A stretch of DNA of 40,435 nucleotides from Chloroflexota bacterium (GTDB lineage: Bacteria > Chloroflexota > Dehalococcoidia > SZUA-161): assembly GCA_034189725.1 (NCBI GenBank), contig JAXHUK010000026.1, positions 1-40,435 on the forward strand, written 5' to 3'. A program made the position numbers and the translations under genes. This document shows positions 11,569 to 28,450 of this stretch, in pieces (position 1 is the first letter of the stretch; each line of letters starts with the position of its first letter). The notes beneath the pieces were generated by a model. It was not told the origin of the DNA, made no database searches, and saw nothing but the letters and a program-made list of their open reading frames with translations.

Positions 11569-13029
11569 TCATGGGAAGCCTCTTCCACCACCTGGAAAGC
11601 CTCCTCCCGGCATCATGGGCCCGCCACCAGTGATGACACTCTCTGTCGCACCGGTTGCGGCAACCTCCACAATTACCACATCCCCCTCCTGGAGACCCTC
11701 CACGACCTCTGTCCACTGGTAATCACTTGTCCCTAAACTCACCGCTCTTACCTGTGGCTGGCCATCGACCAGCACGGTAACCCTCGAGTTATCCGTGGTC
11801 CCGCTTATCGCATCATTCGGCACAAGAAGCACGTCGCTGACCGCTTGAACCACTATCTCCGCGGTAGCACTCATACCCTCACGGAGTTGAATATCGGAGG
11901 GCACTGTGAGGCTGATAGTAACGGGGTACTGGACGATCCCTGATTTGACCTCAGCAAAGGCTGATAGTCTGACTACCTCGCCAGAAAGCTGAATGTCTGA
12001 TAGTGCATCCAGAGAAATGATTGCCTGTTGACCTAGCTCCACGAGTGGGACATCGATCTCATCGACAACAGCGCTCATTTCGATGACGGAAGTATCCACT
12101 ATCTCCACAATCACCGTATTCGCGTTCACATCGTCACCGGGTGCAGCATCATCATTCACCCTGGCTATTACACCATCGAAAGGAGCCAGCAGGGGATAAC
12201 CATCACTGGCCATTTCCAGTTCCTCCAGCGCATCTTCCAGCTTGCCTTTCGCGCTGGCTACCACGCTTTCCGCCAGTTCGATGTCGAGGGGATCCACAAC
12301 CTCCACCATGTCCGCCAAATCCTCCTCAGCTTCTTCCAGATTCCGTTCGGCATCGTAGATGGCGTTTTCCGCATCCTGTTTGACGATCTCCAGGTTGAGA
12401 ACTTTTGCTTCATGATCACTATACGCCTTTTCCACCTCCTCATAGCTCACCACACCATTCATGTACTGATTCAAGACATCAAAGCGAACATCAACAGCCT
12501 CGTCTAATTCGTACTCGGCATTTTCGATATCGAGGAACGCCTGTTCCTGGATATTTAATAATCTCTGGCTGGCTCGTTCAACGGCCTCTTCGGCATCAGC
12601 GATCTCCGACTCGTCGTAAGGATTCAGAAGATCCTCAACGGCATCCTCGGCATCACGTAGAACAACCCTGGCGCTGGCCACTTCTTCCTCCAATGATAAG
12701 ATGAGGGTAGTTGTGCTTTCGAGCCTTGCCAGCACATCACCCTCCTTGACTAAGTCATCCTTCTCGACGTTCACCTCCTGAACCGTCCCCCCGCTGTCGA
12801 ATGTGAGTTGCTCACTGGTGGAGTAGACGAGGCTACCACTGGCGAAAATCGAATTCGTCAAGTCACCATATGCTACCGTGGCGAGCTGAGCATAATCGGT
12901 ACTACCCTCCGATAATTCAGGACTGCTCATCCAATCATAGATACCATAGATTCCCCAGGCAACACCAATAGCCACTACCAGCAGTACTACCTTCTGCCAC
13001 AATTTCAATGTACTCAATCCCTTAAACAT
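11569..13029 (-). CDS. HlyD/MacA-like periplasmic adaptor (membrane fusion protein) with long coiled coil and Gly-rich tail
   Basis: It has an N-terminal TM, lipoyl-like and beta-barrel segments flanking a long acidic coiled coil, and a GGGPMMPGGGFPGGGRGFP tail. I prefer ATG at 13029, preceded by GGAGGG. The ORF stays open back to 13083. Confidence 0.85.
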   Translation of the reverse strand: MFKGLSTLKLWQKVVLLVVAIGVAWGIYGIYDWMSSPELSEGSTDYAQLATVAYGDLTNSIFASGSLVYSTSEQLTFDSGGTVQEVNVEKDDLVKEGDVLARLESTTTLILSLEEEVASARVVLRDAEDAVEDLLNPYDESEIADAEEAVERASQRLLNIQEQAFLDIENAEYELDEAVDVRFDVLNQYMNGVVSYEEVEKAYSDHEAKVLNLEIVKQDAENAIYDAERNLEEAEEDLADMVEVVDPLDIELAESVVASAKGKLEDALEELEMASDGYPLLAPFDGVIARVNDDAAPGDDVNANTVIVEIVDTSVIEMSAVVDEIDVPLVELGQQAIISLDALSDIQLSGEVVRLSAFAEVKSGIVQYPVTISLTVPSDIQLREGMSATAEIVVQAVSDVLLVPNDAISGTTDNSRVTVLVDGQPQVRAVSLGTSDYQWTEVVEGLQEGDVVIVEVAATGATESVITGGGPMMPGGGFPGGGRGFP

Positions 13030-13081
13030 GTTTCCCTCCGTCATGCTCAGGAGCAGTCTGTTCATTCGATATATCACGCTC

Positions 13082-13136
13082 ATTGTACGGCTGGATTGTG
13101 GAGATATTGTGGAGAAATACTGCTTTTTCTGTGTAG
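13082..13136 (-). promoter_or_regulatory. Candidate activator-dependent promoter: conserved box plus -10 TACAAT (copy 2)
   Basis: The minus strand reads CTACACAGAAAAAGCAGTATTTCTCCACAATATCTCCACAATCCAG-CCG-TACAAT. It contains the direct repeat TCTCCACAAT twice with 11-bp periodicity over the -35 position. Confidence 0.55.
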
Positions 13137-13240
13137 TTCTGCGAACCCAGAAACCGGACTACGTAAGCACCACACTCAGGCAATGCGATCTAGCTAATCA
13201 TCAATGTTTCAGGATTAGGCTGGATACTGGATAAAGGTTG

Positions 13241-13274
13241 GCTAGAGGGTCAATAAGCAACGATTTAGGAAGAG
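13241..13274. repeat. Left copy of the direct repeat bracketing the ATPase-DUF4435 gene
   Basis: gtcaataagcaacgatttaggaagag (13249-13274) is identical to 15533-15558. The flanking gctag is also shared. Confidence 0.85.
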
Positions 13275-13328
13275 ATACATATACTGCACCGATCGGTGTG
13301 CTGATAAGAGTTTTCCCTTGGATTTTCT

Positions 13329-13357
13329 TTGACAAGTGGCTGAGAATGCAATACAAT
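13329..13357 (+). promoter_or_regulatory. Near-consensus sigma70-type promoter (TTGACA-17-TACAAT)
   Basis: TTGACA at 13329-13334, a 17-nt spacer and TACAAT at 13352-13357. It lies about 85 nt upstream of the 13443 start. Confidence 0.6.
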
Positions 13358-13442
13358 TCCACTGCTTACTACACTAATATGAAAGTTAATGTTGGGCTTT
13401 TGCCCTGTGTGTCATTGACTCAACGATTGAGGAGAGTAATGC

Positions 13443-15260
13443 ATGAAAATAAGATCCATGGAGTTGGTCGACTTTAGCCCAATCAAGCATCTGCAGATTG
13501 ATGACATGGGAGACACGATAGTCATTGCAGGGGCAAACGGTTCAGGAAAAACAAGGTTGAAAGATGCAATTGTTGCTACATTGGAGGGCAATGCCTTGAT
13601 GAACATGGTAATAGAAGCAACTAGGTCAGAAGAAGAGGATGAAAAGTACTTCAATGGAAAGACTATCAAGATAGAGAAAGGTATACAGAATGATGTTTTG
13701 AATAACTACATAAACAGCCGAAAGTCTGGTGCGGGGCGATACGTTGGTTCTTTGGTCCAAATCGATTCCAATAGAGACGTAGAGAAGCTTTCATACAACG
13801 CTGTCAATTGGCTAGGAGGCGACCCAGATGACGTAGAATCGGCTGGCAAATTCTACTTCAGTCCTTTCATAAACAGATGGCAAGACTTCGTTAATTACAT
13901 TCATCAGAAAACAGCTGCCAGAGATAAGAAAATTGCTGAGGCGGTTAAGGCAGAGCCAAGCAAGATTGGCGATGAGTGGCTGCGAGAACATCCGGATCCA
14001 CTTGACAAGTATAAAGATATCTTCAAAAAAGCCTTGCCGGGCAAGGAGTTGATGAATATTGATCCAGCAAGACCTCGCGAGTTTCGGTATAAGGACGAAT
14101 CGGGGCAAGAATTGAATTTCCATAGGCTAAGTTCGGGAGAAAAGGAAATAGTCAGGGTTCTATTCGATGTTGCAAGAAAAGACATTCGACATTCCATTGT
14201 GATTGTGGATGAACCAGAACTGCATCTGCATCCCACACTTGCCTTTCAGTTGATCGAATCCCTGAAAGCCATGGGAGACCACACGAATCAATTCATATTC
14301 CTAACTCATTCATCGGATTTGATCACAACGTATTACTCGACTGGCGATGTGTACTTCATTGATTCACTCCAAGATGGCACAAACCAAGCACATCGCTTGA
14401 AGGACCTAGTCGATAAACGTCAGGATCTAGTCCCTCTTATTGGCCAAAACATAGGTCTCTTTGCTGTCGGGAAGAAACTTGTGTTTGTGGAAGGTGAATA
14501 CTCAAGTATAGATCGCCTGACCTATCAGAGAATTGCGCAAACAATAGACCCAGAAATCAGAATAATCCCAGCTGGGTCAGTTCTCAACATAATTACCTTA
14601 AGCAGCATAGAAGAGCAGATCAGACAATCGATATTCGGAATTGAACTATATATGGTAAGGGACCGTGATGGTCTTGAATCAAAACAGATCGCATCGTTGG
14701 AGAAGAATGGCAGGATTAGGTGTCTGAAGCGACGACATCTAGAGAACTACTTCCTAGATGAAGAGGTCCTATTTGAAGTAGCGCAGAAGCTCTACACCAC
14801 CAGCAAATTCCCCAACTTGTCACAAGAGGTGATAAAGAACAGCATACTGAAAATAGCTCAAGGTTCGTTGGGTTACAACATATATAAAAACTCAAAAGAG
14901 TATCTGATGCTCAATCATTTTCTAAAGGCACCAGCAGTCAAGTCGGTGGAGCAATTGAGCGTGGATGAGATCAAATCCACAATAGTTAAGGAGATCACGA
15001 ACAATGCAGAGCAGATGGCATCAGGGCTCACGCGAAGCTTTGTCGAAGACTGGCTAAACAAAGAGGAAGCCGCTCTGAATAACAAGCTCACGAATGGTCA
15101 ATGGATAAACGATTACCAAGGGAAATACATATTCAGCAAAGTATGCGCAGATGTCCTGAAAGAAGATCAAACTAAAGTTCGACATGCCTATGTGGACATT
15201 GCCCTAACTAGCAAGCCAAAAGCAATTCAAGATATCATTGACATCTTCAAGGGAATGTGA
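13443..15260 (+). CDS. Fused ABC/AAA-type ATPase + DUF4435 (TOPRIM-like) protein; PARIS (AriA-AriB fusion)-like defence candidate
   Basis: Walker A GANGSGKT (about 13528-13555), signature-like LSSGEKE, Walker B IVIVDEPELHLHP and H-loop FLTHS. The C-terminal half has KLVFVEGE (14481-14498) and VRDRDG (14655-14672), then RRHLENYF, which matches the DUF4435/TOPRIM pattern. By eye the region is more A+T-rich than its neighbours. Confidence 0.7.
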   Translation: MKIRSMELVDFSPIKHLQIDDMGDTIVIAGANGSGKTRLKDAIVATLEGNALMNMVIEATRSEEEDEKYFNGKTIKIEKGIQNDVLNNYINSRKSGAGRYVGSLVQIDSNRDVEKLSYNAVNWLGGDPDDVESAGKFYFSPFINRWQDFVNYIHQKTAARDKKIAEAVKAEPSKIGDEWLREHPDPLDKYKDIFKKALPGKELMNIDPARPREFRYKDESGQELNFHRLSSGEKEIVRVLFDVARKDIRHSIVIVDEPELHLHPTLAFQLIESLKAMGDHTNQFIFLTHSSDLITTYYSTGDVYFIDSLQDGTNQAHRLKDLVDKRQDLVPLIGQNIGLFAVGKKLVFVEGEYSSIDRLTYQRIAQTIDPEIRIIPAGSVLNIITLSSIEEQIRQSIFGIELYMVRDRDGLESKQIASLEKNGRIRCLKRRHLENYFLDEEVLFEVAQKLYTTSKFPNLSQEVIKNSILKIAQGSLGYNIYKNSKEYLMLNHFLKAPAVKSVEQLSVDEIKSTIVKEITNNAEQMASGLTRSFVEDWLNKEEAALNNKLTNGQWINDYQGKYIFSKVCADVLKEDQTKVRHAYVDIALTSKPKAIQDIIDIFKGM

Positions 15261-15285
15261 AATCAACGACAAATAGTCACACAAC

Positions 15286-15305
15286 AAGTCGCTCCAGAGC
15301 GACTT
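15286..15305 (+). terminator. Hairpin downstream of the ATPase-DUF4435 gene
   Basis: Perfect 8-bp stem aagtcgct / agcgactt with loop ccag, 26 nt after the stop. No U-tract follows. Confidence 0.35.
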
Positions 15306-15524
15306 CACTAGCTAGCTTGATTGATTAGCGTTCAGCGGCAAAGTTGAGTCTTGTTACTGGCAATCGTATTCTTGGCAGAGCCGTGCATCGGCTCAATAAG
15401 ACCTCTATTTTGCACAATTTTTTCACTACTTCGCCTTCATATCTGTGAATACGGCTTCATTCCTTTCCCACAGTTTTGCTGCCCACTTAAATTGTCGGTA
15501 ACCCGTATGTTACTCGGACACACT

Positions 15525-15558
15525 GCTAGTGTGTCAATAAGCAACGATTTAGGAAGAG
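15525..15558. repeat. Right copy of the direct repeat bracketing the ATPase-DUF4435 gene
   Basis: 15533-15558 is identical to 13249-13274. The following cgatcggt is also shared with 13290-13297 after a 15-nt indel. Confidence 0.85.
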
Positions 15559-15581
15559 CGATCGGTAGGATGGGTTGCGTG

Positions 15582-15610
15582 TTGACAGCATGGTACTTCT
15601 ATACTATAGT
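15582..15610 (+). promoter_or_regulatory. Near-consensus sigma70-type promoter (TTGACA-17-TATAGT) for hicBA
   Basis: TTGACA at 15582-15587, a 17-nt spacer and TATAGT at 15605-15610. It lies about 70 nt upstream of the hicB GTG. Confidence 0.6.
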
Positions 15611-15682
15611 GGAATTACCGTTAGGGCGTAGACTATCCTCGATTTCACCCCTATACTGTCATAGCAACACTGGGAGGCATAG

Positions 15683-16000
15683 GTGCAAACGCAAGGGTAT
15701 GTGATTCTCACCTTTGAATTTCGTAAAAGCGGCAGGCGATGGACTGCCTATTGCAGAGAGCTTGGCACGGCAACATTCGGGCGATCCCTTACCGACGCTG
15801 AGAATAAACTAGACGAGGCAGTCTTGCTACACTTAAACACCCTTGAAGATGTCGGAGAACGTGAACGGTTCTTCAAAGAGCACGACTTAAGGTTCTATGA
15901 GCACAAGCCCGCAAAGAATACTACCATAAGCGTGCCCCTCAACGAGAACATCTTAATCCGCACGCGAATCCAGCCCGTACGAGAGTTGGTTCCTGCCTAG
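15683..16000 (+). CDS. hicB: HicB-family antitoxin
   Basis: GTG start 5 nt after GGGAGG. The translation YVILTFEFRKSGRRWTAYCRELGTATFGRSLTDAENKLDEAVLLHLNTLED fits the HicB N-terminal fold pattern. Confidence 0.75.
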   Translation: MQTQGYVILTFEFRKSGRRWTAYCRELGTATFGRSLTDAENKLDEAVLLHLNTLEDVGERERFFKEHDLRFYEHKPAKNTTISVPLNENILIRTRIQPVRELVPA

Positions 16001-16009
16001 TATCCGCTC

Positions 16010-16264
16010 ATGTATACCAAAGTTCCTGCCATTTCTGGCAAGCAACTGATAAGGCTCCTACAGAAAGACGGCTGGAACATCGCAAGAAAATCCAACCACG
16101 GCATTGCCCTCACTAAGTCTTTCGCAGATCGCACCAGGGTCACAGTTGTTCCCAGCACGCGTGCATCCCTCGATACTGGTACACTAGCAGCTATCCTTGG
16201 CCCAAAACAAACAGGTATTGCTAAAACAGGCTTACTCGAACTCATCAACAAGTACGGGTTGTGA
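16010..16264 (+). CDS. hicA: HicA/YcfA-family mRNA interferase toxin
   Basis: 84 aa containing ISGKQLIRLLQKDGWNIARKSNHGIAL...VTVVPSTRASLDTGTLAAIL, which is the HicA/YcfA pattern. Confidence 0.8.
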   Translation: MYTKVPAISGKQLIRLLQKDGWNIARKSNHGIALTKSFADRTRVTVVPSTRASLDTGTLAAILGPKQTGIAKTGLLELINKYGL

Positions 16265-16414
16265 CGATCATAACCTATTATCTTTCCCGTTCGTGGTAAG
16301 ACCTTACCCCCTTCTGAACCCGCATATTCAACTTCGGTGCTATTTCTAGTAGAATAGAACAAACGCACCTGGTTGGTTGACCAACGGCAATTGACGAAAA
16401 TCCGGGATGAAGCG

Positions 16415-18991
16415 ATGCCCTCAGCAATGACACCGGTAAGAAGCCAGTATCTCAAGATCAAGCGAAGCTATCCCCAGGCTATCGTGTTCTTCCGCCTGGG
16501 CGATTTCTACGAGACCTTCGACGATGATGCCAGGCTGGTCTCCAGCGAACTGGAGATCACGCTGACCTCCAGAGAGATGGGCAAGGGACAGCGCTACCCT
16601 ATGGCAGGCATCCCCTACCACGCCCTGGACAACTACCTGGCGAAGCTCATCAACAAGGGCTACAAGGTAGCCATTTGCGAGCAGATAGGCGAGCCCAAAG
16701 AGGGCAGGGGTTTGGTCGAACGGGATGTGGTTCGGGTGGTCACCCCGGGCACTGTGGTCGAGGCCAACATGCTCGAAATGAAGGCGAACAACTACCTTGC
16801 CGCCCTCGTCATCGAAGGCGAACAGGCAGGGATAGCCTACATCGATATTACAACAAGTGAATTCGCTACCACGCAGATTCCCGCTGAAAACGCCCCGCTC
16901 GAACTGGAGCGACTCCGACCATCGGAGGTACTCGTTACCCAAAGTTCACAAATCCCCCGATCGTGGCTCTCAACTCCAGCAACGCAGTTAGACGATCAGT
17001 GGTTTGAGCTGGACACGGCACGACAAACCCTGCTCGATACATTCGGAGCATCCTCCCTCGAAGGCTACGGCTGTGCTCACCTCCCGCTGGCGATACAAGC
17101 GGCAGGTGCCATTATTCACTATCTGGAGCAAACCCAGAAGGGTGCCCTGGGGCAAATCAATAATCTCGCTACCTACTCCACCGAGTCCTTCATGATCCTG
17201 GATGCCCAGACACGCCGCAACCTGGAGCTCTTCCAGAGCGGCCGCCTGGGGGTAACCGCGGGGTCGCTAGTGTCCGTCATCGATCTCACCAGGACACCCA
17301 TGGGAGGAAGATTGCTCAAGAGGTGGATGGGACAGCCCCTCCTCGATATACCGCAACTGGAGCAGCGCCAGCAAGCTGTAGCCAGCCTTCATTCGCTGCG
17401 GCGGATCGAGGTGATCGGTCTCCTCAGCAAGCTCAGCGATATCGAGCGGCTGATCAATCGCGTGCGGTCAGACATCGCTACGCCCAGAGAGGTAGTATCT
17501 CTACGGCTCAGTCTGGAGCAGGTTCCCCGGATGAGGGCTGTACTGGAAGAGGAGGAAACGTTACAGTGGCTCTACTCCGAACTCAAGCCCTGTGACGATG
17601 TCATAACATTGATCTCACAAGCTATTGTGGACGCTCCCCCGGCTACCGTGGGCGGTGGCGATGCGATAAGGAATGGCTTCTCCAGCGAATTAGATGAGCT
17701 TCGCTCGGCTTCATCAAACGCCCGCAGATACCTGGCAGACCTGGAACGAACCGAGCGCGAGAGGACGGGGATCAAGTCGCTCAAGGTAGGCTACAACAAG
17801 GTATTTGGCTACTATATCGAGGTCACCTCACCTCATACCCACCTCGTCCCCGAAGACTACATACGCAAACAAACGCTGGTGGGAGCGGAGCGCTACTTCA
17901 CCCCCCAGCTCAAAGAGTACGAATCGTTAATTCTCAATGCCGAGTCCAGGATTGCGGAGCTGGAAACCACCCTCTTTCGCCAGGTATGCCGCCAAATCGG
18001 AGGGTGGGGCGAGCGCATCCTGGGTATTGCCGCTGCCCTGGCCCAGCTCGACGTCCTCTCTACATTCGCCGAGGTAGCCGCCAGATATGGCTATACCCGC
18101 CCCAGGCTGACCACAGATGATTCGATAGAGATCGCTGGAGGACGCCATCCTGTGGTAGAGCGAGCGCTGGTCGACGAGCAATTCGTGCCCAACGATGTCT
18201 ATCTCTCCAATCAGGACGCCCAACTCATCATCCTCACCGGCCCCAACATGTCAGGGAAGTCGACCTTCCTGCGCCAGGTAGCTATCATCGTGCTCCTCGC
18301 CCAGATCGGCAGCTTCGTTCCCGCGGACTCAGCCACTATAGGGCTGGTAGACCGTATTTTCACCAGGGTTGGACTTCAGGACGACCTGGTCACCGGGCAA
18401 TCGACATTCATGATCGAGATGGTGGAGACGGCCAACATACTCAACAACGCCACTTCAAAGTCGTTGATCATACTGGACGAAATCGGGCGCGGGACATCGA
18501 CCTACGATGGACTCTCCATTGCCCAGGCGGTGGCGGAATATATCCACAACCACCCCCGGCTTGGCGCAAAGACGCTCTTTGCTACTCACTACCACGAGCT
18601 TGTGGGGCTGGCCAACTTCCTGCCCCGCGTGAGAAATTTCAATGTCGCCGTATCGGAGGAGGATGGCACAGTGGTCTTCCTGCGTAAGATAATCCCCGGG
18701 GGTGCCGATAAAAGCTACGGCATTCACGTAGCACAGCTCGCAGGTTTACCCCGAGCAGTGGTACATCGCGCCGACGAGGTTTTGGCCGACCTCGAGAATC
18801 ATACCGAGTCAAAAGGGGCACGAAGCGCACAACGCCCCAGCCGCCGTGAGAGGTCTCCCTCAGAGCAACTGCCCCTCTTCGGAGAAAAATCCCCCGTACT
18901 GGACGCCCTCCTCAAGCTGGACGTCTCCTCGATGACTCCTCTCGAGGCCATCACCAAGCTCTACGAGTTGCAGCAAAAGGCCAGAGAATAG
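16415..18991 (+). CDS. mutS: DNA mismatch repair protein MutS
   Basis: The N-terminal mismatch-binding motif is TPVRSQYLKIKRSYPQAIVFFRLGDFYETF. Walker A is GPNMSGKST, and DELGRGTSTYDG-type and ATHYHEL motifs are present. I prefer ATG at 16415. The ORF stays open back to TTG at 16373. Confidence 0.96.
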   Translation: MPSAMTPVRSQYLKIKRSYPQAIVFFRLGDFYETFDDDARLVSSELEITLTSREMGKGQRYPMAGIPYHALDNYLAKLINKGYKVAICEQIGEPKEGRGLVERDVVRVVTPGTVVEANMLEMKANNYLAALVIEGEQAGIAYIDITTSEFATTQIPAENAPLELERLRPSEVLVTQSSQIPRSWLSTPATQLDDQWFELDTARQTLLDTFGASSLEGYGCAHLPLAIQAAGAIIHYLEQTQKGALGQINNLATYSTESFMILDAQTRRNLELFQSGRLGVTAGSLVSVIDLTRTPMGGRLLKRWMGQPLLDIPQLEQRQQAVASLHSLRRIEVIGLLSKLSDIERLINRVRSDIATPREVVSLRLSLEQVPRMRAVLEEEETLQWLYSELKPCDDVITLISQAIVDAPPATVGGGDAIRNGFSSELDELRSASSNARRYLADLERTERERTGIKSLKVGYNKVFGYYIEVTSPHTHLVPEDYIRKQTLVGAERYFTPQLKEYESLILNAESRIAELETTLFRQVCRQIGGWGERILGIAAALAQLDVLSTFAEVAARYGYTRPRLTTDDSIEIAGGRHPVVERALVDEQFVPNDVYLSNQDAQLIILTGPNMSGKSTFLRQVAIIVLLAQIGSFVPADSATIGLVDRIFTRVGLQDDLVTGQSTFMIEMVETANILNNATSKSLIILDEIGRGTSTYDGLSIAQAVAEYIHNHPRLGAKTLFATHYHELVGLANFLPRVRNFNVAVSEEDGTVVFLRKIIPGGADKSYGIHVAQLAGLPRAVVHRADEVLADLENHTESKGARSAQRPSRRERSPSEQLPLFGEKSPVLDALLKLDVSSMTPLEAITKLYELQQKARE

Positions 18992-20430: not shown

Positions 20431-21327
20431 TCAGCAACCAGGCGTTATCCCAAAGTCCACAGCGACTTTTTTCACATCCTCAAGCAATGAATATACATCA
20501 ACATTTGGCAACTCGCGCACAATCTTCCTGAATGGGTCATCAGTGCTCTCTTCACTCTTAAAGATATCCAGTAGATCATCAATACCATCACCGTTTTGAG
20601 AGTCCGGGGAGGATGACATGTCTACCGCCTCGGAAGCTTGGCCCTCTGCTTCGGCGGGTGGAGCAGGGTCCATCAACGCGGCATCGAAAATATCGTTTTC
20701 CGCTTCGAAAGGCGAAGCGGCATTGTCTATAAGCCCCGGATCAAATCCCTGGCTTCCTGCATCATAACCAGCCGGTGGTGCTATATCCCCAAGCCCCGGA
20801 GCAAATCCCTGGCTTCCTGCATCGTAACCAGCCGGTGGTGCTATATCCCCAAGTCCCGGGGCAAATCCCTGGCTTCCTGCGTCATAACCAGTCTGAACTA
20901 CAGCATCCTGAAGCCCCGCACTTTGCCCTTGTGCCACAATAGCATCTTGTGGTGCACTATCTACCACGTCAAGCTCTACCTGGCCATAAACCTCGTCTCC
21001 ACCCAGAGATATCCCTCCCAAATCCCCCGCCATCTGTCCGTGTTCTCCGTTAGCCGGTTCCTGATTTATCGCCTGCGGCTCAACAATGCTACTGTCGTAA
21101 CTGCCTAACTCAGCCATTGATAGTTCTGAAAACGATACTGGGATTCTCTCGTCCGCTTCGTCTCCAAACTGGCCAAGCTTCTTCTCTCCTGCAGCGAGGA
21201 ATTTTCCTACAGGATCAACCTCATCGACGACGGTGCTTCTATCACTTCTGCTTGAAAGTAAAGGGCTTTTCCACAACCGCCGCACCGATTGCAAACCACG
21301 TTGTACCGGTTCTAATTCTATCTTCAT
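20431..21327 (-). CDS. Acidic, low-complexity protein with three 20-aa tandem repeats; unknown function, downstream of arlJ
   Basis: 298-aa ORF containing (PP)AGYDAGSQGFAPGLGDIA three times. It is very D/E-rich with a C-terminal DDLLDIFKSEESTDDPF...LLEDVKK segment. The start codon is uncertain. Confidence 0.6.
   Translation of the reverse strand: MKIELEPVQRGLQSVRRLWKSPLLSSRSDRSTVVDEVDPVGKFLAAGEKKLGQFGDEADERIPVSFSELSMAELGSYDSSIVEPQAINQEPANGEHGQMAGDLGGISLGGDEVYGQVELDVVDSAPQDAIVAQGQSAGLQDAVVQTGYDAGSQGFAPGLGDIAPPAGYDAGSQGFAPGLGDIAPPAGYDAGSQGFDPGLIDNAASPFEAENDIFDAALMDPAPPAEAEGQASEAVDMSSSPDSQNGDGIDDLLDIFKSEESTDDPFRKIVRELPNVDVYSLLEDVKKVAVDFGITPGC
20731..20893. repeat. Tandem repeat, 60-bp unit, about 2.7 copies (intragenic)
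   Basis: The units start at 20731, 20791 and 20851 with only a few substitutions and an exact 60-bp period. Confidence 0.9.
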
Positions 21328-21665
21328 GCAGGATCGCTCTACCTAGCTAGTATAGTGGAAAACACGTAGCTCAGCCTGTGATACCTCAATAGAGAAGGAC
21401 ATGGATTTCGCTGTTCAACCATTGCTGCAGGTTTACCGAATGTGTCATTGTGTATCTACCACCCTTGAACAGTAACACATCTACACCCATGTCAACAATG
21501 CCCAAATCGGTATCAACATATGAGGGAAATCGTACTGAGCGATATACAGGACGAAAGAACATTGATTTCGGCATGGAGTAAGGGCAAAATGAGTACGTTA
21601 GTTTACCAGCGTATAGGGAGGTAGATGTACCAGCCGTTGAACAGGGTGTTTGACTCTAACATCAG

Positions 21666-23189
21666 CTACATAGCGGACATCGAACCGAATATGCTGTCTG
21701 CAGCGATGGGTACTACAACCATCACTGCCCCGGAAGAGCCTAGAGTCAAAGCGAGGAAACTAAAGAATTTATACTTATTGCCACCATCAGCGGCGGCGGC
21801 GGCGAACGCAGTCGTCAGTGACAGGACGATTATACAGGGGAGAACGACAGTTTGCAGAAACTCAATGCCCTCAAAGCTGAATGTGAACATATTACTCGCC
21901 ATTTCCTGTGCTTCAACAACACTTTCCGTGTATACATTTTCAAGTACTTCGCCGAACATCAACAATACCTGCACCACGAATGACAGCAAACCGACAATAG
22001 CTATATGCATAGCAATAGCCAGGTACCCAAATGATGCCGACACCTGACTCCTCTTGGCACGTAGAAAATCAAGCATGGTTGCTACTATAGAGGAGCGAGA
22101 CCCTACCTCCTCGGGATCGCCACCCAACCTGTTAGCATCATTGAACATCTTCACACTTCGGTATACCGTTTCACTGCCTGTCTCCAGAGAAAAGCGCTGC
22201 CAGCATATATCGGGTTGCAGCCGGGAGTCCAGCCTGGCGCTTAGCCTCGTAACATCTGCCGCCAGGTTCGCTGTCGACCTCAGGTCCAACCTGCTCAGAG
22301 CAGTAGAAACTGTTAATCCGATCGCCGACGCCACGTTCCCCAGTGACCTCAAAAAGATGCTAATATCAGCATCTTTCTTCTTCACCGCCTTGTCAAATAA
22401 CATACCAGCTACACCTACAGGAAACATGAGTGCTGATGAGATAATGAGAGCCCATCCTATCCCCATTCCAGCTACCAAAACAACGATAAAACCGATGGCG
22501 GCTGCAGGTAATAGAATTCGAGCCAGCCGACGTGTCCTCTCGTAGCTAGTACAGTACCAGGCGGGATTATGGACCCTCACCTCCTTGGGTGCTACCCTGA
22601 AAATCATCCAGGATCCCATTGCAGCTACACAAATAGTAACACCAACGATTATGATGGTGAATGATTTTGCTACCGGGTAGATAAGCATGGAGACCGCAGC
22701 AACCATCACAATCAGGGCTGCAGACACAATGAGGGAAGCATAGCCTTCAGTCCACTTCCTCAGCGATTCCACATCGCGTTCATATTCATTCTGAAATGAC
22801 TCGGCCTGTATCTTTGCCTCCTGAGCCAGGAAGTCAGCCTCTGCTTCTCCTGAACCGAGGGAGCTCGCAAGACGCAACAGTAGACTTTTGACCACATCAT
22901 TATCAGCGGATTCTCCCACGAGACGACTGGCCACAGCATAATCATATCGCATTTGCTTCGCCAGGGTGTGGATATCCTCAAAATAGTGCGCTGAGGTACA
23001 GGGGAGCTGACTGGCAAACTCAAATATCTGGCTGCGTGGAATACCTGCTGCAGCTATAGACGACATATATGCCAGTTGGTAGAACAGGTCAAAACTGAGA
23101 TAGTCACTACCTGCAATGCCTTTTTTAAAGGACTCTTCTTCAGAAGAGTCCTTCCTGCCGCGCTTTAGCGAGAACTTTGAGAAGTTCAT
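21666..23189 (-). CDS. arlJ: Archaellum membrane platform protein ArlJ/FlaJ (T2SS-F/TadC superfamily)
   Basis: 507-aa polytopic membrane protein with two cytoplasmic helical domains. The N-terminal FDLFYQLAYMSSIAAAG motif is typical of FlaJ. It overlaps the arlI 3' end by 50 nt. Confidence 0.8.
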   Translation of the reverse strand: MNFSKFSLKRGRKDSSEEESFKKGIAGSDYLSFDLFYQLAYMSSIAAAGIPRSQIFEFASQLPCTSAHYFEDIHTLAKQMRYDYAVASRLVGESADNDVVKSLLLRLASSLGSGEAEADFLAQEAKIQAESFQNEYERDVESLRKWTEGYASLIVSAALIVMVAAVSMLIYPVAKSFTIIIVGVTICVAAMGSWMIFRVAPKEVRVHNPAWYCTSYERTRRLARILLPAAAIGFIVVLVAGMGIGWALIISSALMFPVGVAGMLFDKAVKKKDADISIFLRSLGNVASAIGLTVSTALSRLDLRSTANLAADVTRLSARLDSRLQPDICWQRFSLETGSETVYRSVKMFNDANRLGGDPEEVGSRSSIVATMLDFLRAKRSQVSASFGYLAIAMHIAIVGLLSFVVQVLLMFGEVLENVYTESVVEAQEMASNMFTFSFEGIEFLQTVVLPCIIVLSLTTAFAAAAADGGNKYKFFSFLALTLGSSGAVMVVVPIAADSIFGSMSAM

Positions 23190-24924
23190 AAAAGTCGGTC
23201 ACTCCCTTGTCTTTATGGAGTTTTTCTAGTATCCTCTGCCTTCTCTCCACCGATGAATAGATTTGCCACTTGCGGTTGGATGGGATTCCATGCTTTGGCG
23301 CGAGCTTCTCTTCCAATAAAAAACTGTTCTTGTTCCCCACAAACTCGAACGTATCGTTCACTGAGTCCCAACGAAACACCTCGACAAAGGAGAAAATGTT
23401 GTCAACAGGATCATAACCTACGATTTCACTGATACTGGTTGCACGCCGGCCCTTTTTACCATTGGGCAACTTGACAGCGTTTTGGCATACCACCACGTTC
23501 AAATTGTCCATATAGGTCTTGGATACATTGATCGGAGGTCCGGTGAGACGCTGAATCAGTTTCTCAACATTGGAAGCGTGGAACGTACTCATCACCTGAT
23601 GGCCTGTCTGCATTGCGCCAAAAGCGATATTCCCTTCCTCGCCACGTATCTCACCTACAATTATTACATCAGGGCGCTGCCTCAAAGCAGCCTTTAATAG
23701 CTCGAACATGTTCACATTAGAAACTTTTTCTCCTGGTGCGGGATTTTTAGCTACCTCTCGCAGCCAATTCGAGTGAGGGACCTGAAGCTCCGGTGTGTCC
23801 TCTATGCTTATGATTTTGTGATTCGTTGGCATAAAGGCAGTCACTGCATTCATCAGTGTAGTCTTACCTGAGGCGGTCTCCCCAACGACAAACACATTCA
23901 TACCATCCTCGATCACCATGGAAAGATACGCAGCCATCTCATAGTTCAGGCTACCGAATTCAATAAGCTCCATGACACTTAGTGGCGTATCCGCAAATTT
24001 TCTGATGGTGAAATTGCTGCCACGCCTTGAGACCTCCCGACCAAAGACAATGTTAATACGAGAGCCATCAGCCAGAGTAGCATCCACGATCGGACTACGC
24101 AGCGTAACCGGTTTTTTTATCGACTCGGAAAGACGAAGCACAAACTCATCCACATCATCATGGGTTTCAAATGTGATGCATGATTGTACGCTCCTGAATA
24201 TCTTATGCTCAACGAATATGCCACCGACTCCGCTGCAACTAATATCCTCAATGTTAGAGTCTTGTATGAGCGGCTCCATGACTCCCATCCCCACCTTGTC
24301 TCTCACAATGATGTACTTTAACGCTTCAAGTTGATCGGGGGACACCTCGACCTTACTCTTTTTACTTATGCCTTTCCCCTTCTTTCCTTTCCCTTTTCCT
24401 TTATCACCTTTTCCACTACCATCATCATCTGCCGTAGATAAACTTGTGGAAGTACCATTACGGTGCACTGTAGTGACCTTATCTATCAACCGCAGAAGAC
24501 ACTCGGTTCGTTCTTCATCAGATTTTACATTGCTCAGGGCTTCAGCTTCATCGACCAGCCTATCCTCTACCTCATGAAGCACTACACTCATGTCCTGATT
24601 CATTCCCGGTTCAATCGGGATATAGAAAGGTCTGCCACCGCTGGAGTCGGAGTACATGTGAATGAAAATCTCTTCCCCGACAGGGAAGATAAGGTTAAGT
24701 TGCTTACGATCACCATCAGACCGCTTGAGCTTGGATACGTACTCCGGGACCGCTACCTCATCGAGTGGTACCTGACACAGATATTCCCAGAGATGCTTGT
24801 ACTTCTGGCTTGCCGTCTGCATCTCTTCAGGAAGCAAGAGAAACAACTCATCACTTTCATCCGGCATGCGCCTGGCATTACCTGCATCGTCGTTTTTCCC
24901 AAATGGTACTACAGTCCTTGGCAT
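23140..24924 (-). CDS. arlI: Archaellum assembly/motor ATPase ArlI/FlaI (T2SS-E/VirB11 superfamily)
   Basis: Walker A VGETASGKTT, Asp box IISIEDTPEL, Walker B RQRPDVIIVGEIRGEE and His box TGHQVMSTFHA. The long N-terminal domain matches FlaI architecture. Confidence 0.88.
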   Translation of the reverse strand: MPRTVVPFGKNDDAGNARRMPDESDELFLLLPEEMQTASQKYKHLWEYLCQVPLDEVAVPEYVSKLKRSDGDRKQLNLIFPVGEEIFIHMYSDSSGGRPFYIPIEPGMNQDMSVVLHEVEDRLVDEAEALSNVKSDEERTECLLRLIDKVTTVHRNGTSTSLSTADDDGSGKGDKGKGKGKKGKGISKKSKVEVSPDQLEALKYIIVRDKVGMGVMEPLIQDSNIEDISCSGVGGIFVEHKIFRSVQSCITFETHDDVDEFVLRLSESIKKPVTLRSPIVDATLADGSRINIVFGREVSRRGSNFTIRKFADTPLSVMELIEFGSLNYEMAAYLSMVIEDGMNVFVVGETASGKTTLMNAVTAFMPTNHKIISIEDTPELQVPHSNWLREVAKNPAPGEKVSNVNMFELLKAALRQRPDVIIVGEIRGEEGNIAFGAMQTGHQVMSTFHASNVEKLIQRLTGPPINVSKTYMDNLNVVVCQNAVKLPNGKKGRRATSISEIVGYDPVDNIFSFVEVFRWDSVNDTFEFVGNKNSFLLEEKLAPKHGIPSNRKWQIYSSVERRQRILEKLHKDKGVTDFYELLKVLAKARQEGLF

Positions 24925-24933
24925 AGTTAACCT

Positions 24934-25644
24934 TTACGCCCTCGCTTTAGAATACGGTATCACTTTAATGCCCCACCCCGGCTCAACATCGAACGAGATA
25001 ATATTACCTGTGCTTTTCTGAGCCCCCCGCACCTTGGATACCTCCAATATTTTTATCATCTTGCTCCCCATAGTCTCCATACGTAATCTCAGGTGAGCAT
25101 CACACATGGAACCGATCCTGACCATGACATTCTCATCAAAAGCATAAGAATGAGCGACACAGACAACGCTCATCCCTTTATCACAAAGCCCTTTACAATC
25201 CTCAAAAAAGGTGAGAACTTCCTCTGTAGAAGCATGCGTCAAGAAGTAGGTGATGGAATCGACTATCGCTAAATCAATGCCCTTGCCGGAACAACTATTG
25301 AGTATGGGCAGCAGTCCTTCATCCAGATTTCGTCTCGTTTTCTTCGTATCCAGGGGATATATTCGCAATCGAGTTAACAGCAGGTAATCCAGAACATCCA
25401 GGTTAAGGCTCTGCATCTGACTTACCAGGCTCTTCATCGTATTCTCAGTAGTAAACACCATAACTCTTAAACCTAACCGCAGTGAGCCCCAGATCATCTG
25501 CTGGGTCAGCACAGATTTACCAGAATCAGGCTGCCCTTCGATGAGGCACAATGACTTCAGCGGTATTCCTCCGCCCATCTTTTTATCCAGTTCATCATTC
25601 CCTGTCGAGAATGTTCTGACATCCTCCGTTTTTAGCCCGCCCAT
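24934..25644 (-). CDS. arlH: ArlH/FlaH KaiC/RecA-like ATP-binding protein
   Basis: 236 aa with ELDKKMGGGIPLKSLCLIEGQPDSGKSVLTQQM, a KaiC-like Walker A. It lies immediately upstream of arlI, as in archaeal loci. The RBS is AGGAGA. Confidence 0.82.
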   Translation of the reverse strand: MGGLKTEDVRTFSTGNDELDKKMGGGIPLKSLCLIEGQPDSGKSVLTQQMIWGSLRLGLRVMVFTTENTMKSLVSQMQSLNLDVLDYLLLTRLRIYPLDTKKTRRNLDEGLLPILNSCSGKGIDLAIVDSITYFLTHASTEEVLTFFEDCKGLCDKGMSVVCVAHSYAFDENVMVRIGSMCDAHLRLRMETMGSKMIKILEVSKVRGAQKSTGNIISFDVEPGWGIKVIPYSKARA

Positions 25645-25653
25645 ACCAGTCTC

Positions 25654-26175
25654 CTAACCTTGAAACTGCGCCGAGACTACCACACCATTAGGACTGGACA
25701 GAATCACTCGATTGATGGTGTCCACCCCCGGTGATGGATTCAATTTCAATCTCATCAGCGCTACCTCGCCGGGATTGAGGATATCCGGCTCAAATACCTC
25801 CGGATCCTCTGTAGTATCATCCGCGTAGATGGTTATAACCGCCCATTCGTTATCAGAAGGAATGCTCTCCTCTGTATATGAAAGAGAGCCAACGTGGTAG
25901 GTCGTATTTCCATAATACTGAACCAGAACGTCCCATTGGGAAAACTGGGCAAGATGTACCTTGCCAACGTTCTGAACCAGCACATCTACAAAAGGCGCTG
26001 TGTTATTTGCGTTAACTATATCGATATCAGTCCTGAGTATATCCTCTGCTTTATCCGTCATTAATTTCCAGGATTGACAGGTGGAGTCCAGAGAATCAAA
26101 GGATACTTGGGACCAGGACACTACCGCCACCATCATCAAGACCACAACAAACAGGGTTACCAACACATTGCTCAT
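25654..26175 (-). CDS. arlG: ArlG/FlaG-like protein (N-terminal TM + archaellin-like beta domain)
   Basis: 173 aa with a single N-terminal hydrophobic helix VLVTLFVVVLMMVAVVSW followed by a beta-rich domain. The F/G assignment rests only on the Euryarchaeota-type gene order F-G-H-I-J. Confidence 0.55.
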   Translation of the reverse strand: MSNVLVTLFVVVLMMVAVVSWSQVSFDSLDSTCQSWKLMTDKAEDILRTDIDIVNANNTAPFVDVLVQNVGKVHLAQFSQWDVLVQYYGNTTYHVGSLSYTEESIPSDNEWAVITIYADDTTEDPEVFEPDILNPGEVALMRLKLNPSPGVDTINRVILSSPNGVVVSAQFQG

Positions 26176-26180
26176 TTGCT

Positions 26181-26696
26181 TTACATACTAAAGTAATAAT
26201 CATCGGATATCCCATTAGGAATGAGAACCTTGACATTGTATTCACCGGGCGATAATGTTTCATCGTAGCTAACCTCTATCATCACGGTCGTTGCAGTCCC
26301 CCACTCATCCCCATTCTCTATTTCCTCATCCCAGCGAGGGTATTCACCATCAGCATAGTCGACATGAGGAATCCAGGCCCAAACTGTATCGTTGCCGCTG
26401 AGAAGAACGTCGCAACGCTCGATATCATCCACAGGTTCACTGCCAACATTCTTCACCCAGATAAAAATATCGAAGTTGCTATCCTCGTTAGTATCCTGCC
26501 ATTGCCCGTCGTTATCTAACTCTCCTGCAGCATGAATGATCTCGATATGACTTCTGATGCGTTCGTTCATCCGTGCAGAGGCGCCACCCAGCGCCCCGCT
26601 AGTCGTCGTAACCGCTGGATACACCGCATTGATCACCAGCGTCACACATACTACAGCAGCCACTACCAATAAAATCGTGGTTAATGCTTTATCCAT
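26181..26696 (-). CDS. arlF: ArlF/FlaF-like protein (N-terminal TM + archaellin-like beta domain)
   Basis: 171 aa with the N-terminal helix ALTTILLVVAAVVCVTLVINAVYPA followed by a beta-rich domain. It overlaps the upstream gene by 8 nt. The assignment is by synteny. Confidence 0.55.
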   Translation of the reverse strand: MDKALTTILLVVAAVVCVTLVINAVYPAVTTTSGALGGASARMNERIRSHIEIIHAAGELDNDGQWQDTNEDSNFDIFIWVKNVGSEPVDDIERCDVLLSGNDTVWAWIPHVDYADGEYPRWDEEIENGDEWGTATTVMIEVSYDETLSPGEYNVKVLIPNGISDDYYFSM

Positions 26697-27651
26697 GTTT
26701 GGACTTCCCGCTGTTTAATCCACCATTGAGAAGCTGCGTAACCACAACTGACTCCAGGGCTCCACTACGATAGCGCAGCAAGCTATCCAGCTCAATAAGA
26801 AGCTGGATACTAGCAGATGCTGACATATCCTCATTCTCGGGAGAATCCTCGCCCCGGTTGTTGTCACTGTAGAGGTCAGCCAGCAGCAGCATAGTCTGTT
26901 TCAAGCGTGATGGAACATTGCCCGTTATATCATATATCTCCACCACCTTAGTTACCCTGCTTTTACCAACCTGATTGACAGCACGTGACAGCCACTGTGC
27001 TAACACTGATACCGTTAACAGATCAATAACTTGATCGTCCCCGGTCTCTGAAGGGCCCCCATTTCCACAGCTACAACCAGAGTCAGGTTCACCCTGTTCA
27101 TTCAAGCTATCAACTAAACCAAGCTCCAGGAAATTTGATCCTGATCCGCGACTGCCCTTCTTAGCAGTCACACCCAAATCTGTTGGCGGCGAGACATCTC
27201 CCGGACTTTGCGCGGACGGTTCATCAATACCACCAACAAAACCTGGCATCACAGGAATAACCGATGGCATTTGAGCAGCTTGTGGTGGGATTGCAATCTC
27301 CCCAGGAAAATCCATCGCTGGCATTTGAGCAACCTGGGGGGGAACTCCACCACCCAAATTCATCGCCGGCGTTTGAACAACCGGGGGTGGAGCAATTCCA
27401 CCACCCAAACTCGTATCCAGAACTACGGCGGGTTGTCGCTGCCCCAAGGCGTCTGCGGCACCGGTGGCACCTGAAAGAGGTCCAGGTGCTGATGAGACTA
27501 TGGTACCACTACTATCCAAGGGAGGAATGTAGGGATACCCACCACCAGTAGCCAGTGTATCCTTAATATCGAGCAGCACCGACTGTATCTGGTTCTTAAG
27601 CACCTTCATTTCCTCTTCGAGTGCCTCGATTCGCTCTTCCATGCTGCCCAA
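26689..27651 (-). CDS. ArlC/D/E (FlaC/D/E)-like archaellum accessory protein
   Basis: N-terminal coiled coil MEERIEALEEEMKVLKNQIQSVLLDIKD. A central Pro/Gly/Met-rich degenerate repeat has PPxxAQMPxx three times. The C-terminal region LLTVSVLAQWLSRAVNQVGKSRVTKVVEIYDITGNVPSRLKQTMLLLADL resembles the FlaD/E domain. The start is TTG at 27651 or ATG at 27642. Confidence 0.6.
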   Translation of the reverse strand: MGSMEERIEALEEEMKVLKNQIQSVLLDIKDTLATGGGYPYIPPLDSSGTIVSSAPGPLSGATGAADALGQRQPAVVLDTSLGGGIAPPPVVQTPAMNLGGGVPPQVAQMPAMDFPGEIAIPPQAAQMPSVIPVMPGFVGGIDEPSAQSPGDVSPPTDLGVTAKKGSRGSGSNFLELGLVDSLNEQGEPDSGCSCGNGGPSETGDDQVIDLLTVSVLAQWLSRAVNQVGKSRVTKVVEIYDITGNVPSRLKQTMLLLADLYSDNNRGEDSPENEDMSASASIQLLIELDSLLRYRSGALESVVVTQLLNGGLNSGKSKHG

Positions 27652-27670
27652 TCCTGTTTCTTAATACCAT

Positions 27671-27713
27671 GGAGGTCGCTGCGGGGACGGCTGACTGGGT
27701 GACAGCGACCTCC
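27671..27713 (-). promoter_or_regulatory. Intercistronic stem-loop between archaellin and accessory genes (attenuator, terminator or processing site candidate)
   Basis: Perfect 11-bp GC-rich stem ggaggtcgctg / cagcgacctcc with a 21-nt loop. It lies in the 98-nt gap between the arlB stop and the next start. Confidence 0.45.
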
Positions 27714-27749
27714 TAATCAACTCAAGCACGTATATAAGTTACAACCTCG

Positions 27750-28364
27750 CTAGTTCAGAATCATTTGATTGTCGAGGTTGGCCGGGGTTGTCCTCTCAAT
27801 GACGAGTGTGCTTCCTACCTGAGGCATAACCTCAATGGTGAAGGTGTGATACGTCCCTATAGTCTCACCAACACCTGTCAGATCCACCGTGAGCTTGAAC
27901 ATCTCACCCGCTTCCAGCAGTTCATCATTGTCTCGCTTGCCCAGCTGCGTCTTGCTCCAGGCCAAGTCATATGCGCTTGCACCCTGGCTGGTGTAGGATA
28001 TAATGGCAACGTTGGAGCTACCAGTGTCAGCTAGCCCATCACTGTCAATATCATTGGGACATGTAAGGTCGATCGCCTCACCCTTAAGGGCATTGGTTAC
28101 AGTGAACGTCACATTGCCAACTGCAGTTGCATTGGCTTGCTTGGCGGCTACTACACTACCGACCAGCTCCAGCGTAGATCGAGTCTCCTCAATTCCTGCG
28201 TAGATGGCCTCCTGCCCCTTCTGGGACGAGAATATCCCCGCTGACAACACCGTGTACGCAAAGACCGAAGCAACTACTACGAATGCAATCAAAATGATCG
28301 CCGTCTCCAAGCCAGTGATGCCCCTCTCATCCCGCTGTGTCTTCCCCATGAACTTTTTCAACAT
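27750..28364 (-). CDS. arlB: Archaellin (archaeal flagellin ArlB/FlaB) with class III signal peptide
   Basis: ATG at 28364 follows AGGAGG. The N-terminus MLKKFMGKTQRDERG-ITGLETAIILIAFVVVASVFAYTVLSAGIFSSQKG matches the conserved archaellin prepilin-like N-terminus. The ORF stays open back to 28418. Confidence 0.88.
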   Translation of the reverse strand: MLKKFMGKTQRDERGITGLETAIILIAFVVVASVFAYTVLSAGIFSSQKGQEAIYAGIEETRSTLELVGSVVAAKQANATAVGNVTFTVTNALKGEAIDLTCPNDIDSDGLADTGSSNVAIISYTSQGASAYDLAWSKTQLGKRDNDELLEAGEMFKLTVDLTGVGETIGTYHTFTIEVMPQVGSTLVIERTTPANLDNQMILN

Positions 28365-28450
28365 TTGTTGACCTCCTGTAATTTTTTCGGCCCACATATT
28401 CAGTATGGCAACCTGCATGTGGCCTCTGCAGACTGCATCTGATATCCTCT

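Follow-up and report, generated by a model that had tools for sequence, protein, structure and literature searches.

What is encoded by a single bacterial gene whose product begins as an ABC-type ATPase and ends with the acidic motifs of a Toprim-like nuclease and, if it serves in defence, how is it held in check and on what does it act? The gene at issue lies in contig JAXHUK010000026.1 of a Chloroflexota bacterium (assembly GCA_034189725.1), the whole analysed stretch of which, 40,435 nucleotides (nt), is here termed the window and provides the coordinates. In the window's list of open reading frames (ORFs) it starts with ATG, occupies 13443..15260 on the + strand and has a product of 605 amino acids (aa). 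A first-pass annotation, made by a model from the letters of the DNA, took it for a fused PARIS-like (AriA-AriB) anti-phage candidate. In our assessment it is likely that the gene stands alone and encodes a PARIS protein in a single chain, i.e., an AriA-AriB fusion composed of an ATPase head, a short linker, a DUF4435-type Toprim nuclease and a helical C-terminal domain, with the nuclease switched on in cis and cutting host nucleic acid, likely tRNA. That such single-gene fusions are known, as the first-pass annotation also stated, is borne out by the PARIS definition, to which fusions of AriA and AriB belong (PMC9122126; PMC11464382).

One chain, two halves

The ORF and every motif that had been quoted for it are indeed present in the 605-aa translation: GANGSGKT (aa 30-37), LSSGEKE (229-235), IVIVDEPELHLHP (252-264) and FLTHS (286-290) towards the N-terminus and, in the same protein, VFVEGE (347-352), VRDRDG (405-410) and RRHLENYF (430-437) in the C-terminal half. 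For the first half, the profile search that the first-pass annotation had proposed, with AAA_15 and AAA_21, gave matches over aa 27-294 that exceed both Pfam cut-offs (AAA_15, 2.3e-16 and 60.9 bits against 32.1; AAA_21, 2.9e-16 and 60.9 bits against 27). Searches of PDB sequences with the protein or with its family profile reached ABC/SMC-type heads only, those of UvrA, PtuA, AriA, OLD and Rad50, with AriA at 9.5e-6 for the protein alone and at 6e-8 for the family profile. In this head a short insert separates Walker A from the signature motif. With the full-length AlphaFold model, which has a mean predicted local distance difference test score (pLDDT) of 81, the best and longest Foldseek match is the OLD-type ATPase-Toprim effector of retron-Eco8 (9LPA_B, E 4e-11), with Septu PtuA, RecN and SMC heads ranking lower; the comparison is dominated by ATPase heads and is uninformative on the nuclease half.

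What, then, is the nuclease half? The fused AriAB model PDLC02981 is at the top of the 127 PADLOC families that the protein matches (1.8e-54, 183.6 bits), and when the C-terminal half is taken alone the only PADLOC matches are AriAB (2.3e-24) and AriB (1.8e-5). A threshold of 80 bits was used by Rousset et al. in 2022 for the hidden Markov model of AAA_15+DUF4435 fusions (PMC9122126), and 183.6 bits is in excess of it, assuming that PDLC02981 is the same model. A phmmer search of 1.84 billion representative proteins with the C-terminal half yielded only 236 clusters, and the full-length proteins so matched are nearly all 600-700 aa with the domain at about residues 300-600. One protein reached in this way (E 4.7e-8), P0251 of a longer sister clade, aligns with PDLC02981 over virtually the whole model (positions 1-693 of 694; 3.8e-203, 675 bits) and exceeds the Pfam gathering score of DUF4435 (PF14491), at 31.5 bits against 27. 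When the alignment of the 113-member family of the window protein was compared by hhalign with a 16-member alignment of the longer clade, the probability of homology was 100% (E 4.4e-72) over 556 columns that span both halves, and DUF4435 is present in 7 of those 16 members. Among 24 close homologues whose C-terminal halves were scanned singly, Pfam DUF4435 matches four, at best with 5e-9, and OLD-like_TOPRIM matches three weakly, with E at least 0.024. By the published operational definition the protein, judged by its profiles, counts as a PARIS fusion, a divergent and compact one, and the top PADLOC match together with the hhalign result supports the fused PARIS-like identity initially put forward.

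Are the motifs those of a working enzyme? Two sets of sequences are informative, one of 113 homologues with 59-83% identity to the query, and the other an alignment of 11 sequences that reaches down to 20% identity and includes canonical members of both fusion models. In the larger set the invariant residues of the ATPase half are G30, N32, G33, G35, K36, L229, S230-E233, E235, D256-E257 and T288-H289, and those of the nuclease half are E350-G351, D357-R358, R406, R408-G410, R431, E434 and Y436, with D407 conserved in at least 90%. Conservation on this scale indicates that the quoted motifs are not due to chance. In the broader alignment the ATPase half retains G30, N32, G33, G35, K36, S230, E233, D256-E257-P258, H261, L262, P264 and T288-H289, and the nuclease half G351, D357, D407, D409, E434 and N435. 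The acidic residues, whose conservation had been singled out as decisive for the initial proposal, are accordingly retained even in the canonical fusions, with the four aspartates and glutamates D357, D407, D409 and E434 unchanged and E350 replaced once, by Asp. The active-site residues of AriB are E26, D30, D88, E90 and E122, and mutation of E26 inactivates PARIS (Burman et al., PMC11464382); by order and spacing only, we infer that E350, D357, D407, D409 and E434 are their respective equivalents. AlphaFold 2 (AF2) models give the core at aa 344-440 the topology beta-alpha-beta-alpha-beta-alpha-beta, in which a strand at 345-349/350 ends at E350 and D407-x-D409 directly follows a strand at 402-406, and in these models E350 and the DxD sit where the Glu and DxD of a Toprim fold are expected.

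Several results nevertheless weigh against the identification as a fused PARIS. Neither Pfam DUF4435 nor OLD-like_TOPRIM matches the 605-aa protein, whether full length or as the C-terminal half alone, even at E<=10. The AriB chain was not reached by searches of PDB sequences with the protein nor, again even at E<=10, with the family profile or a profile of the C-terminal half. Comparison of the predicted structure with AriB, which the first-pass annotation had recommended, gave no significant Foldseek match: a domain-only AlphaFold model (pLDDT 85, predicted template modelling score 0.79) retrieved nothing from the PDB at E<=0.001, the best having E 0.26 with AriB outside the top 50, and nothing significant from BFVD, where the best was an RloB-like protein at E 0.13. 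Defence genes do not usually show identities as high as the 53-66% seen here across distant phyla. The literature searched contains no characterised fused PARIS, only statements that fusions exist, and what is proposed below for the trigger, oligomeric state and substrate of the 605-aa protein is inferred throughout.

How serious are these points? In regard to the profiles, the outcome of the DUF4435/TOPRIM check on the C-terminal half is divided, blank in Pfam and positive with the PADLOC AriAB and AriB models and in the homologues and sister clade. The missing Pfam match is bridged indirectly, as the PADLOC profiles, the DUF4435 matches of the homologues and the hhalign comparison connect the family to DUF4435/AriB. 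In regard to structure, pLDDT in the domain-only model is above 90 for the helical domain and 51-81 for the Toprim core, and Foldseek is weak on small alpha/beta cores; as far as the model goes, the absent structural match to AriB means that similarity went undetected, not that the two folds were shown to differ.

How does the protein stand in relation to other fusions? With the PARIS single-gene fusions (AriAB; the DefenseFinder 'PARIS_I_merge' type; PDLC02981) it shares the domain order, an AAA_15/AAA_21 ATPase, a DUF4435-type Toprim and a helical tail, with end-to-end profile-profile homology, an identical set of catalytic motifs and a stand-alone gene. It differs from the canonical ones in being about 100 aa shorter, without two inserts between Walker A and the Q-loop region, and in having only 21% identity to P0251 (184 against 675 bits on PDLC02981); its clade is a tightly conserved group of its own with a fixed length, and Pfam DUF4435 is undetectable in the window protein. 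A second subtype of fusion, the AAA_21-type AriAB of model PDLC02982, has the fused architecture and motifs in common with it. Campylobacter pCNZW441b1 encodes one (WP_216681622.1, 524 aa) that matches PDLC02982 at 3e-126, as against 7.3e-19 for the window protein, and it and another example, a 504-aa protein of E. coli 64A:C, are 80-100 aa shorter. The initial description of the protein as compact for such a fusion needs to be qualified: it holds by some 100 aa against the nearest fusion model, with its 694 positions, but other fused PARIS-type proteins examined are 504-570 aa.

Probable activation in cis and the likely target

In the two-gene PARIS of E. coli B185 (AriA, 464 aa, and AriB; PDB 8UX9, 8V45-8V49), a hexamer of AriA sequesters AriB, which is set free on ATP-dependent binding of Ocr or Ptr1/2; the released AriB forms dimers that cut within the anticodon stems of tRNA-Lys, tRNA-Thr and tRNA-Asn (PMC11464382, PMC12409363). 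The window protein resembles this system in its ABC ATPase with AAA_15/AAA_21 signatures, and in a Toprim Glu, a DxD/E pair and a further Glu at a spacing similar to that of E26, D88/E90 and E122 in AriB. It differs in that its ATPase half falls short of AriA by about 160 aa and in that the AriB chain is matched neither by sequence profile nor by Foldseek. Above all, its halves are covalently joined and therefore the AriB-release step is impossible; sequestration in an AriA hexamer, triggered release and dimerisation of free AriB cannot occur as described. How might such a tethered nuclease be controlled? P2 OLD, also a covalent ATPase-Toprim, is an instructive comparison as in it ATP hydrolysis activates cutting in the tRNA anticodon stem (PMC12445682), and by that analogy activation is probably in cis.

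A course of events can be sketched. In an uninfected cell the ATPase head, which probably forms a dimer or a larger assembly, would hold the tethered nuclease inactive. On infection the ATPase half, or else the variable helical domain, may detect a phage-derived cue, by analogy with PARIS an anti-restriction or DNA-mimic protein, and ATP binding or hydrolysis would then switch on the nuclease in cis. The putative two-metal Toprim site (E350, D357, D407/D409 and E434) would cut host nucleic acid, the likeliest target being the tRNA anticodon arm, as for AriB and P2 OLD, with stalled translation and aborted infection as the predicted outcome. For the helical domain, aa 441-605, Foldseek recognised no structural relative in the PDB or BFVD. 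The segment at aa 501-560 is the most variable of the protein (entropy 2.0 bits, in comparison to 0.31 at aa 229-300), and aa 500-560 are a candidate specificity module.

Could the target be DNA rather than tRNA? A single-chain ATPase-Toprim enzyme that nicks or cleaves phage or host DNA is in our estimation unlikely. The best full-length structural match being the retron-Eco8 OLD-type effector is in keeping with it, as are profile matches to NCBIfam retron_eff_Eco8 (8.1e-12) and to PADLOC Old (1.3e-13), GajA (4.5e-13) and ATPase-Toprim_I-B (5.8e-16), and the weak OLD-like_TOPRIM matches of three of the 24 homologues. One chain encoded by a stand-alone gene is the architecture of Class 1 OLD, a member of which, from Vibrio cholerae (Vc OLD), nicks DNA (PMC12392090). 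However, the OLD, GajA and Eco8 matches mainly involve the ATPase and the first Toprim strand only (aa 217-375), the C-terminal half alone finds only AriAB and AriB in PADLOC, and the homologues score far better on DUF4435 than on OLD-like_TOPRIM (5e-9 against 0.024). Moreover, the founding OLD protein is itself now reported to be a tRNA nuclease (PMC12445682). With the OLD family at large (P2 OLD, Class 1 Vc OLD, the retron-Eco8 effector and GajA) the window protein has in common a single polypeptide in which an ABC ATPase is followed by a Toprim, the Eco8 effector being the nearest to it in full-length structure and P2 OLD the instance of a nuclease under ATP control in cis. It is distinguished by a Toprim half that groups with DUF4435/AriB instead of OLD-like_TOPRIM, by a C-terminal helical domain with no counterpart detected by Foldseek in the PDB or BFVD, and by having no retron reverse transcriptase or non-coding RNA, helicase or GajB partner near its gene.

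More specific assignments within these groups were considered and rejected. Membership of Class 1 OLD was set aside as the protein has no match to PF20469 and PADLOC Old (1.3e-13) covers aa 237-326 only, i.e., ATPase. A retron Eco8-type effector (Class 3 OLD) was set aside as there is no reverse transcriptase ORF nearby and no Rfam match in 12800-16500, and retron_eff_Eco8 gives 44.5 bits against a cut-off of 250. For Septu PtuA the NCBIfam score is 57.7 bits against a cut-off of 500, no HNH gene adjoins, and the PADLOC PtuA match is to the ATPase only. Similarly for Septu, Gabija, MADS and AbiL in general, the profile matches are confined to the shared ATPase, and partner genes are absent.

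Spread, neighbours and the low-GC islet

How widespread is the gene and does it travel with a partner? At least 780 homologue clusters at 90% identity are present in public data, the top 120 being 59-83% identical to the query, with pairwise identity within the top set of 53-100% (median 64%). The source names of homologues include Chloroflexota, Nitrospira, Methylobacter, Marinimicrobia, Paracrocinitomix (Bacteroidota), Thiodiazotropha and a Pacearchaeota bin. In five lineages (Nitrospira, Paracrocinitomix, Methylobacter, Marinimicrobia and a fifth) no conserved neighbour was found: a Fic protein, a CHAT-TPR protein, integrases with a resolvase and RHS genes, a Mu-type transposase region and housekeeping genes are variously adjacent, and the homologues are usually flanked by 200-600 bp of non-coding DNA. 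The varied neighbours and non-coding flanks mean that the gene is stand-alone. In the contig of the closest homologue, conservation extends beyond the gene over some 60 nt of 5' leader (from about 13390) and some 30 nt on the downstream side.

Some individual occurrences may be mentioned in their own right. A 605-aa homologue, P0098, 61% identical, is assigned to a 'Candidatus Pacearchaeota archaeon' bin, reflecting either cross-domain transfer into a DPANN archaeon or contamination of the bin. In Nitrospira a Fic/DUF4172 gene precedes the homologue on two independent contigs (L001 1555-2667 and L003 2150-3262) and may be a further toxin or defence gene at that site.

More distant relatives come from conjugative plasmids and from a temperate phage of Oenococcus. 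By tblastn aa 24-450 are tied, at some 23-27% identity, to plasmid-borne single proteins named 'DUF4435 domain-containing protein' by the Prokaryotic Genome Annotation Pipeline (PGAP). The phage, phi9805 (KF147927.1 / NC_023559.1, 36707-38146), has a fused relative with 24.5% identity over aa 8-568 that is annotated only as an 'ABC transporter' protein, and this fits phage-borne carriage of PARIS-type fusions. The 504-aa fused ATPase-Toprim relative in E. coli 64A:C (NZ_CP134663.1; L088:3536-5050) is unannotated in the PLSDB table, and its best PADLOC match is PDC-M01A, not AriAB. The record that contains it is of 4.9 Mb and is labelled 'plasmid unnamed1'; it looks like a mislabelled chromosome.

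Is a defence role the right one at all? The protein might be a conserved ATPase-nuclease of the cell's own, with a part in DNA repair or RNA processing, as 53-66% pairwise identity over Chloroflexota, Nitrospira, Gammaproteobacteria, Bacteroidota, Marinimicrobia and the Pacearchaeota bin, a length of exactly 605 aa in 65 of the 113 homologues, and the resemblance of its ATPase to the heads of UvrA, RecN, RecF and Rad50 might suggest. We consider this very improbable. The distribution is patchy and the context differs per genome, often with integrases or transposases beside the gene, and the guanine plus cytosine (GC) content of the gene is 8-15 points under that of its surroundings. In addition, such high identity between phyla, being without synteny, points to horizontal transfer rather than to the vertical descent of a housekeeping gene. 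In 33 related Chloroflexota loci neither the ATPase-nuclease gene nor the nearby hicA is beside mutS. As evidence of acquisition this absence is weak because synteny is lacking altogether: the closest genome in that empty-site comparison has 69% MutS identity and shares no synteny, not even the transporter operon. We return, then, to the gene as a candidate for horizontally acquired defence, of the fused PARIS kind, in a Dehalococcoidia-like Chloroflexota chromosome.

The immediate setting (Table 1) is as the first-pass annotation had depicted it in two respects, an A+T-richer islet (GC 0.425-0.434 over 13001-15500, in comparison to 0.51-0.58 on both flanks) and a bracketing repeat. The latter is a 34-nt direct repeat, one copy on each side of the gene, identical at 32 of 34 positions with an exact 26-nt core and without a counterpart in 100 shuffles, and each copy is 24-55 nt upstream of a sigma-70-like promoter that agrees with the consensus at 11 of 12 positions. 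It was found neither in any of the 90 loci fetched nor in the metagenome collection. The islet has no tRNA gene or integrase and, in an Rfam scan of 12800-16500, no Rfam RNA. The idea of the repeat as the end of a mobile element was discarded in view of its lack of copies elsewhere and an islet without tRNA or integrase, and that of a hidden RNA partner (a retron non-coding RNA or a riboswitch) in view of the Rfam result. The repeat may have arisen by duplication on insertion, or it may be an operator that the two units share.

A third element of the initial description, an adjoining hicBA module, stands in part. HicA passes its Pfam gathering score (PF07927, 9.8e-7, 29.2 bits against 27), but the 105-aa ORF in the antitoxin position before it has no HicB support in Pfam, NCBIfam or PDB sequences, only DUF7387 at 0.003; its designation as HicB was dropped, and it may be an unclassified HicA partner. 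Might the ATPase-nuclease be half of a larger system, with the hicB-like/hicA pair or another unrecognised partner as the other half and the 34-nt element as the mark of their co-regulation? Both transcription units are within one low-GC islet and each has the element ahead of its promoter-like site. Yet in the five other lineages neither HicA/HicB nor any conserved neighbour is beside the gene, the element is missing from the 90 loci and metagenome collection, and the islet has no Rfam RNA; there is, we think, only a slight chance that such a partnership exists.

Table 1. Features of the ATPase-nuclease gene, its islet and a separate archaellum-like cluster, in window coordinates
Feature	Coordinates	Strand	Description or basis
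Whole gene	13443..15260	+	single-chain ABC-type ATPase and DUF4435/Toprim-like nuclease, likely of fused AriAB type
N-terminal ABC/SMC-type ATPase head, aa 1-300	13443..14342	+	Pfam, PDB sequence matches, Foldseek
Walker A / P-loop GANGSGKT, aa 30-37	13530..13553	+	conservation in homologues and distant fusions
ABC signature-like LSSGEKE, aa 229-235	14127..14147	+	conservation
Walker B and D-loop region IVIVDEPELHLHP, aa 252-264	14196..14234	+	conservation
H-loop T288-H289, inside FLTHS	14304..14309	+	conservation
Toprim-like core, aa 344-440	14472..14762	+	AF2 secondary structure, PADLOC AriB 1.8e-5, DUF4435 in homologues
Predicted catalytic Glu E350 (VFVEGE)	14490..14492	+	conservation; putative correspondence to AriB E26 by position
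Predicted metal-binding DxD, D407-R408-D409	14661..14669	+	conservation; putative analogy by position to AriB D88/E90
E434-N435-Y436 (RRHLENYF), predicted third acidic active-site position	14742..14750	+	conservation; putative analogy to AriB E122
C-terminal all-helical domain, aa 441-605	14763..15257	+	AF2 model, pLDDT 88-98
34-nt direct repeat, left copy	13241-13274	+	repeat search, zero chance matches expected
Promoter-like TTGACA-17-TACAAT upstream of the ATPase-nuclease gene	13329..13357	+	11/12 consensus positions, consensus match only
34-nt direct repeat, right copy, upstream of the hicB-like/hicA pair	15525-15558	+	repeat search
Sigma-70-like promoter site upstream of the hicB-like/hicA pair	15582-15610	+	11/12 consensus positions
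Two-gene module: 105-aa ORF 15683-16000 and hicA 16010-16264	15683..16264	+	HicA_toxin PF07927; same low-GC islet
T2SSF/FlaJ-like protein	21666-23189	-	archaellum-like cluster
T2SSE/FlaI-like ATPase	23140-24924	-	archaellum-like cluster
KaiC/FlaH-like ATPase	24934-25644	-	archaellum-like cluster
Archaeal flagellin PF01917	27750-28418	-	1.2e-23

Beyond the islet at 13.2-16.3 kb the window is ordinary chromosome and not a defence island. An archaellum-like cluster (20431-28418, -) is present in this otherwise Chloroflexota (Dehalococcoidia-like) contig. Further on are genes for a 791-aa DUF3160 protein (29693-32068, +; 4.6e-208) and for a 1365-aa multi-PAS/GAF histidine kinase (33757-37854, -) with an adjoining response regulator.

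What a compact fused clade would mean

The family is already recognised by existing defence-gene finders and, to our knowledge, every detection tool classes a single-gene fusion as PARIS. Where, then, does the remaining interest lie? It is in a type of protein, the fused PARIS, of which the literature searched has no characterised example, in the clade's striking conservation across phyla and in a helical domain without a structural relative. More tentatively, and we would not put it higher than a possibility on the doubtful side, the 605-aa clade may represent a compact, self-contained form of PARIS with a distinct mechanism, activated in cis by an ATP-driven rearrangement or by oligomerisation and so closer to P2 OLD than to AriA/AriB, with aa 500-560 setting the specificity for trigger or substrate. 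The near-fixed length and identity of about 60% from Chloroflexota to Bacteroidota and the DPANN bin would then mean that one successful cassette has spread across the phyla only very recently, its target being universally conserved, for example the tRNA anticodon arm.

The mechanism of PARIS is understood only for the two-protein E. coli system, where defence needs the release and dimerisation of AriB. With at least 780 clusters, a stand-alone gene and an invariant catalytic set, the compact clade is a convenient model in which to ask how a tethered AriA-AriB stays off, how it is activated, and whether it still acts on tRNA.

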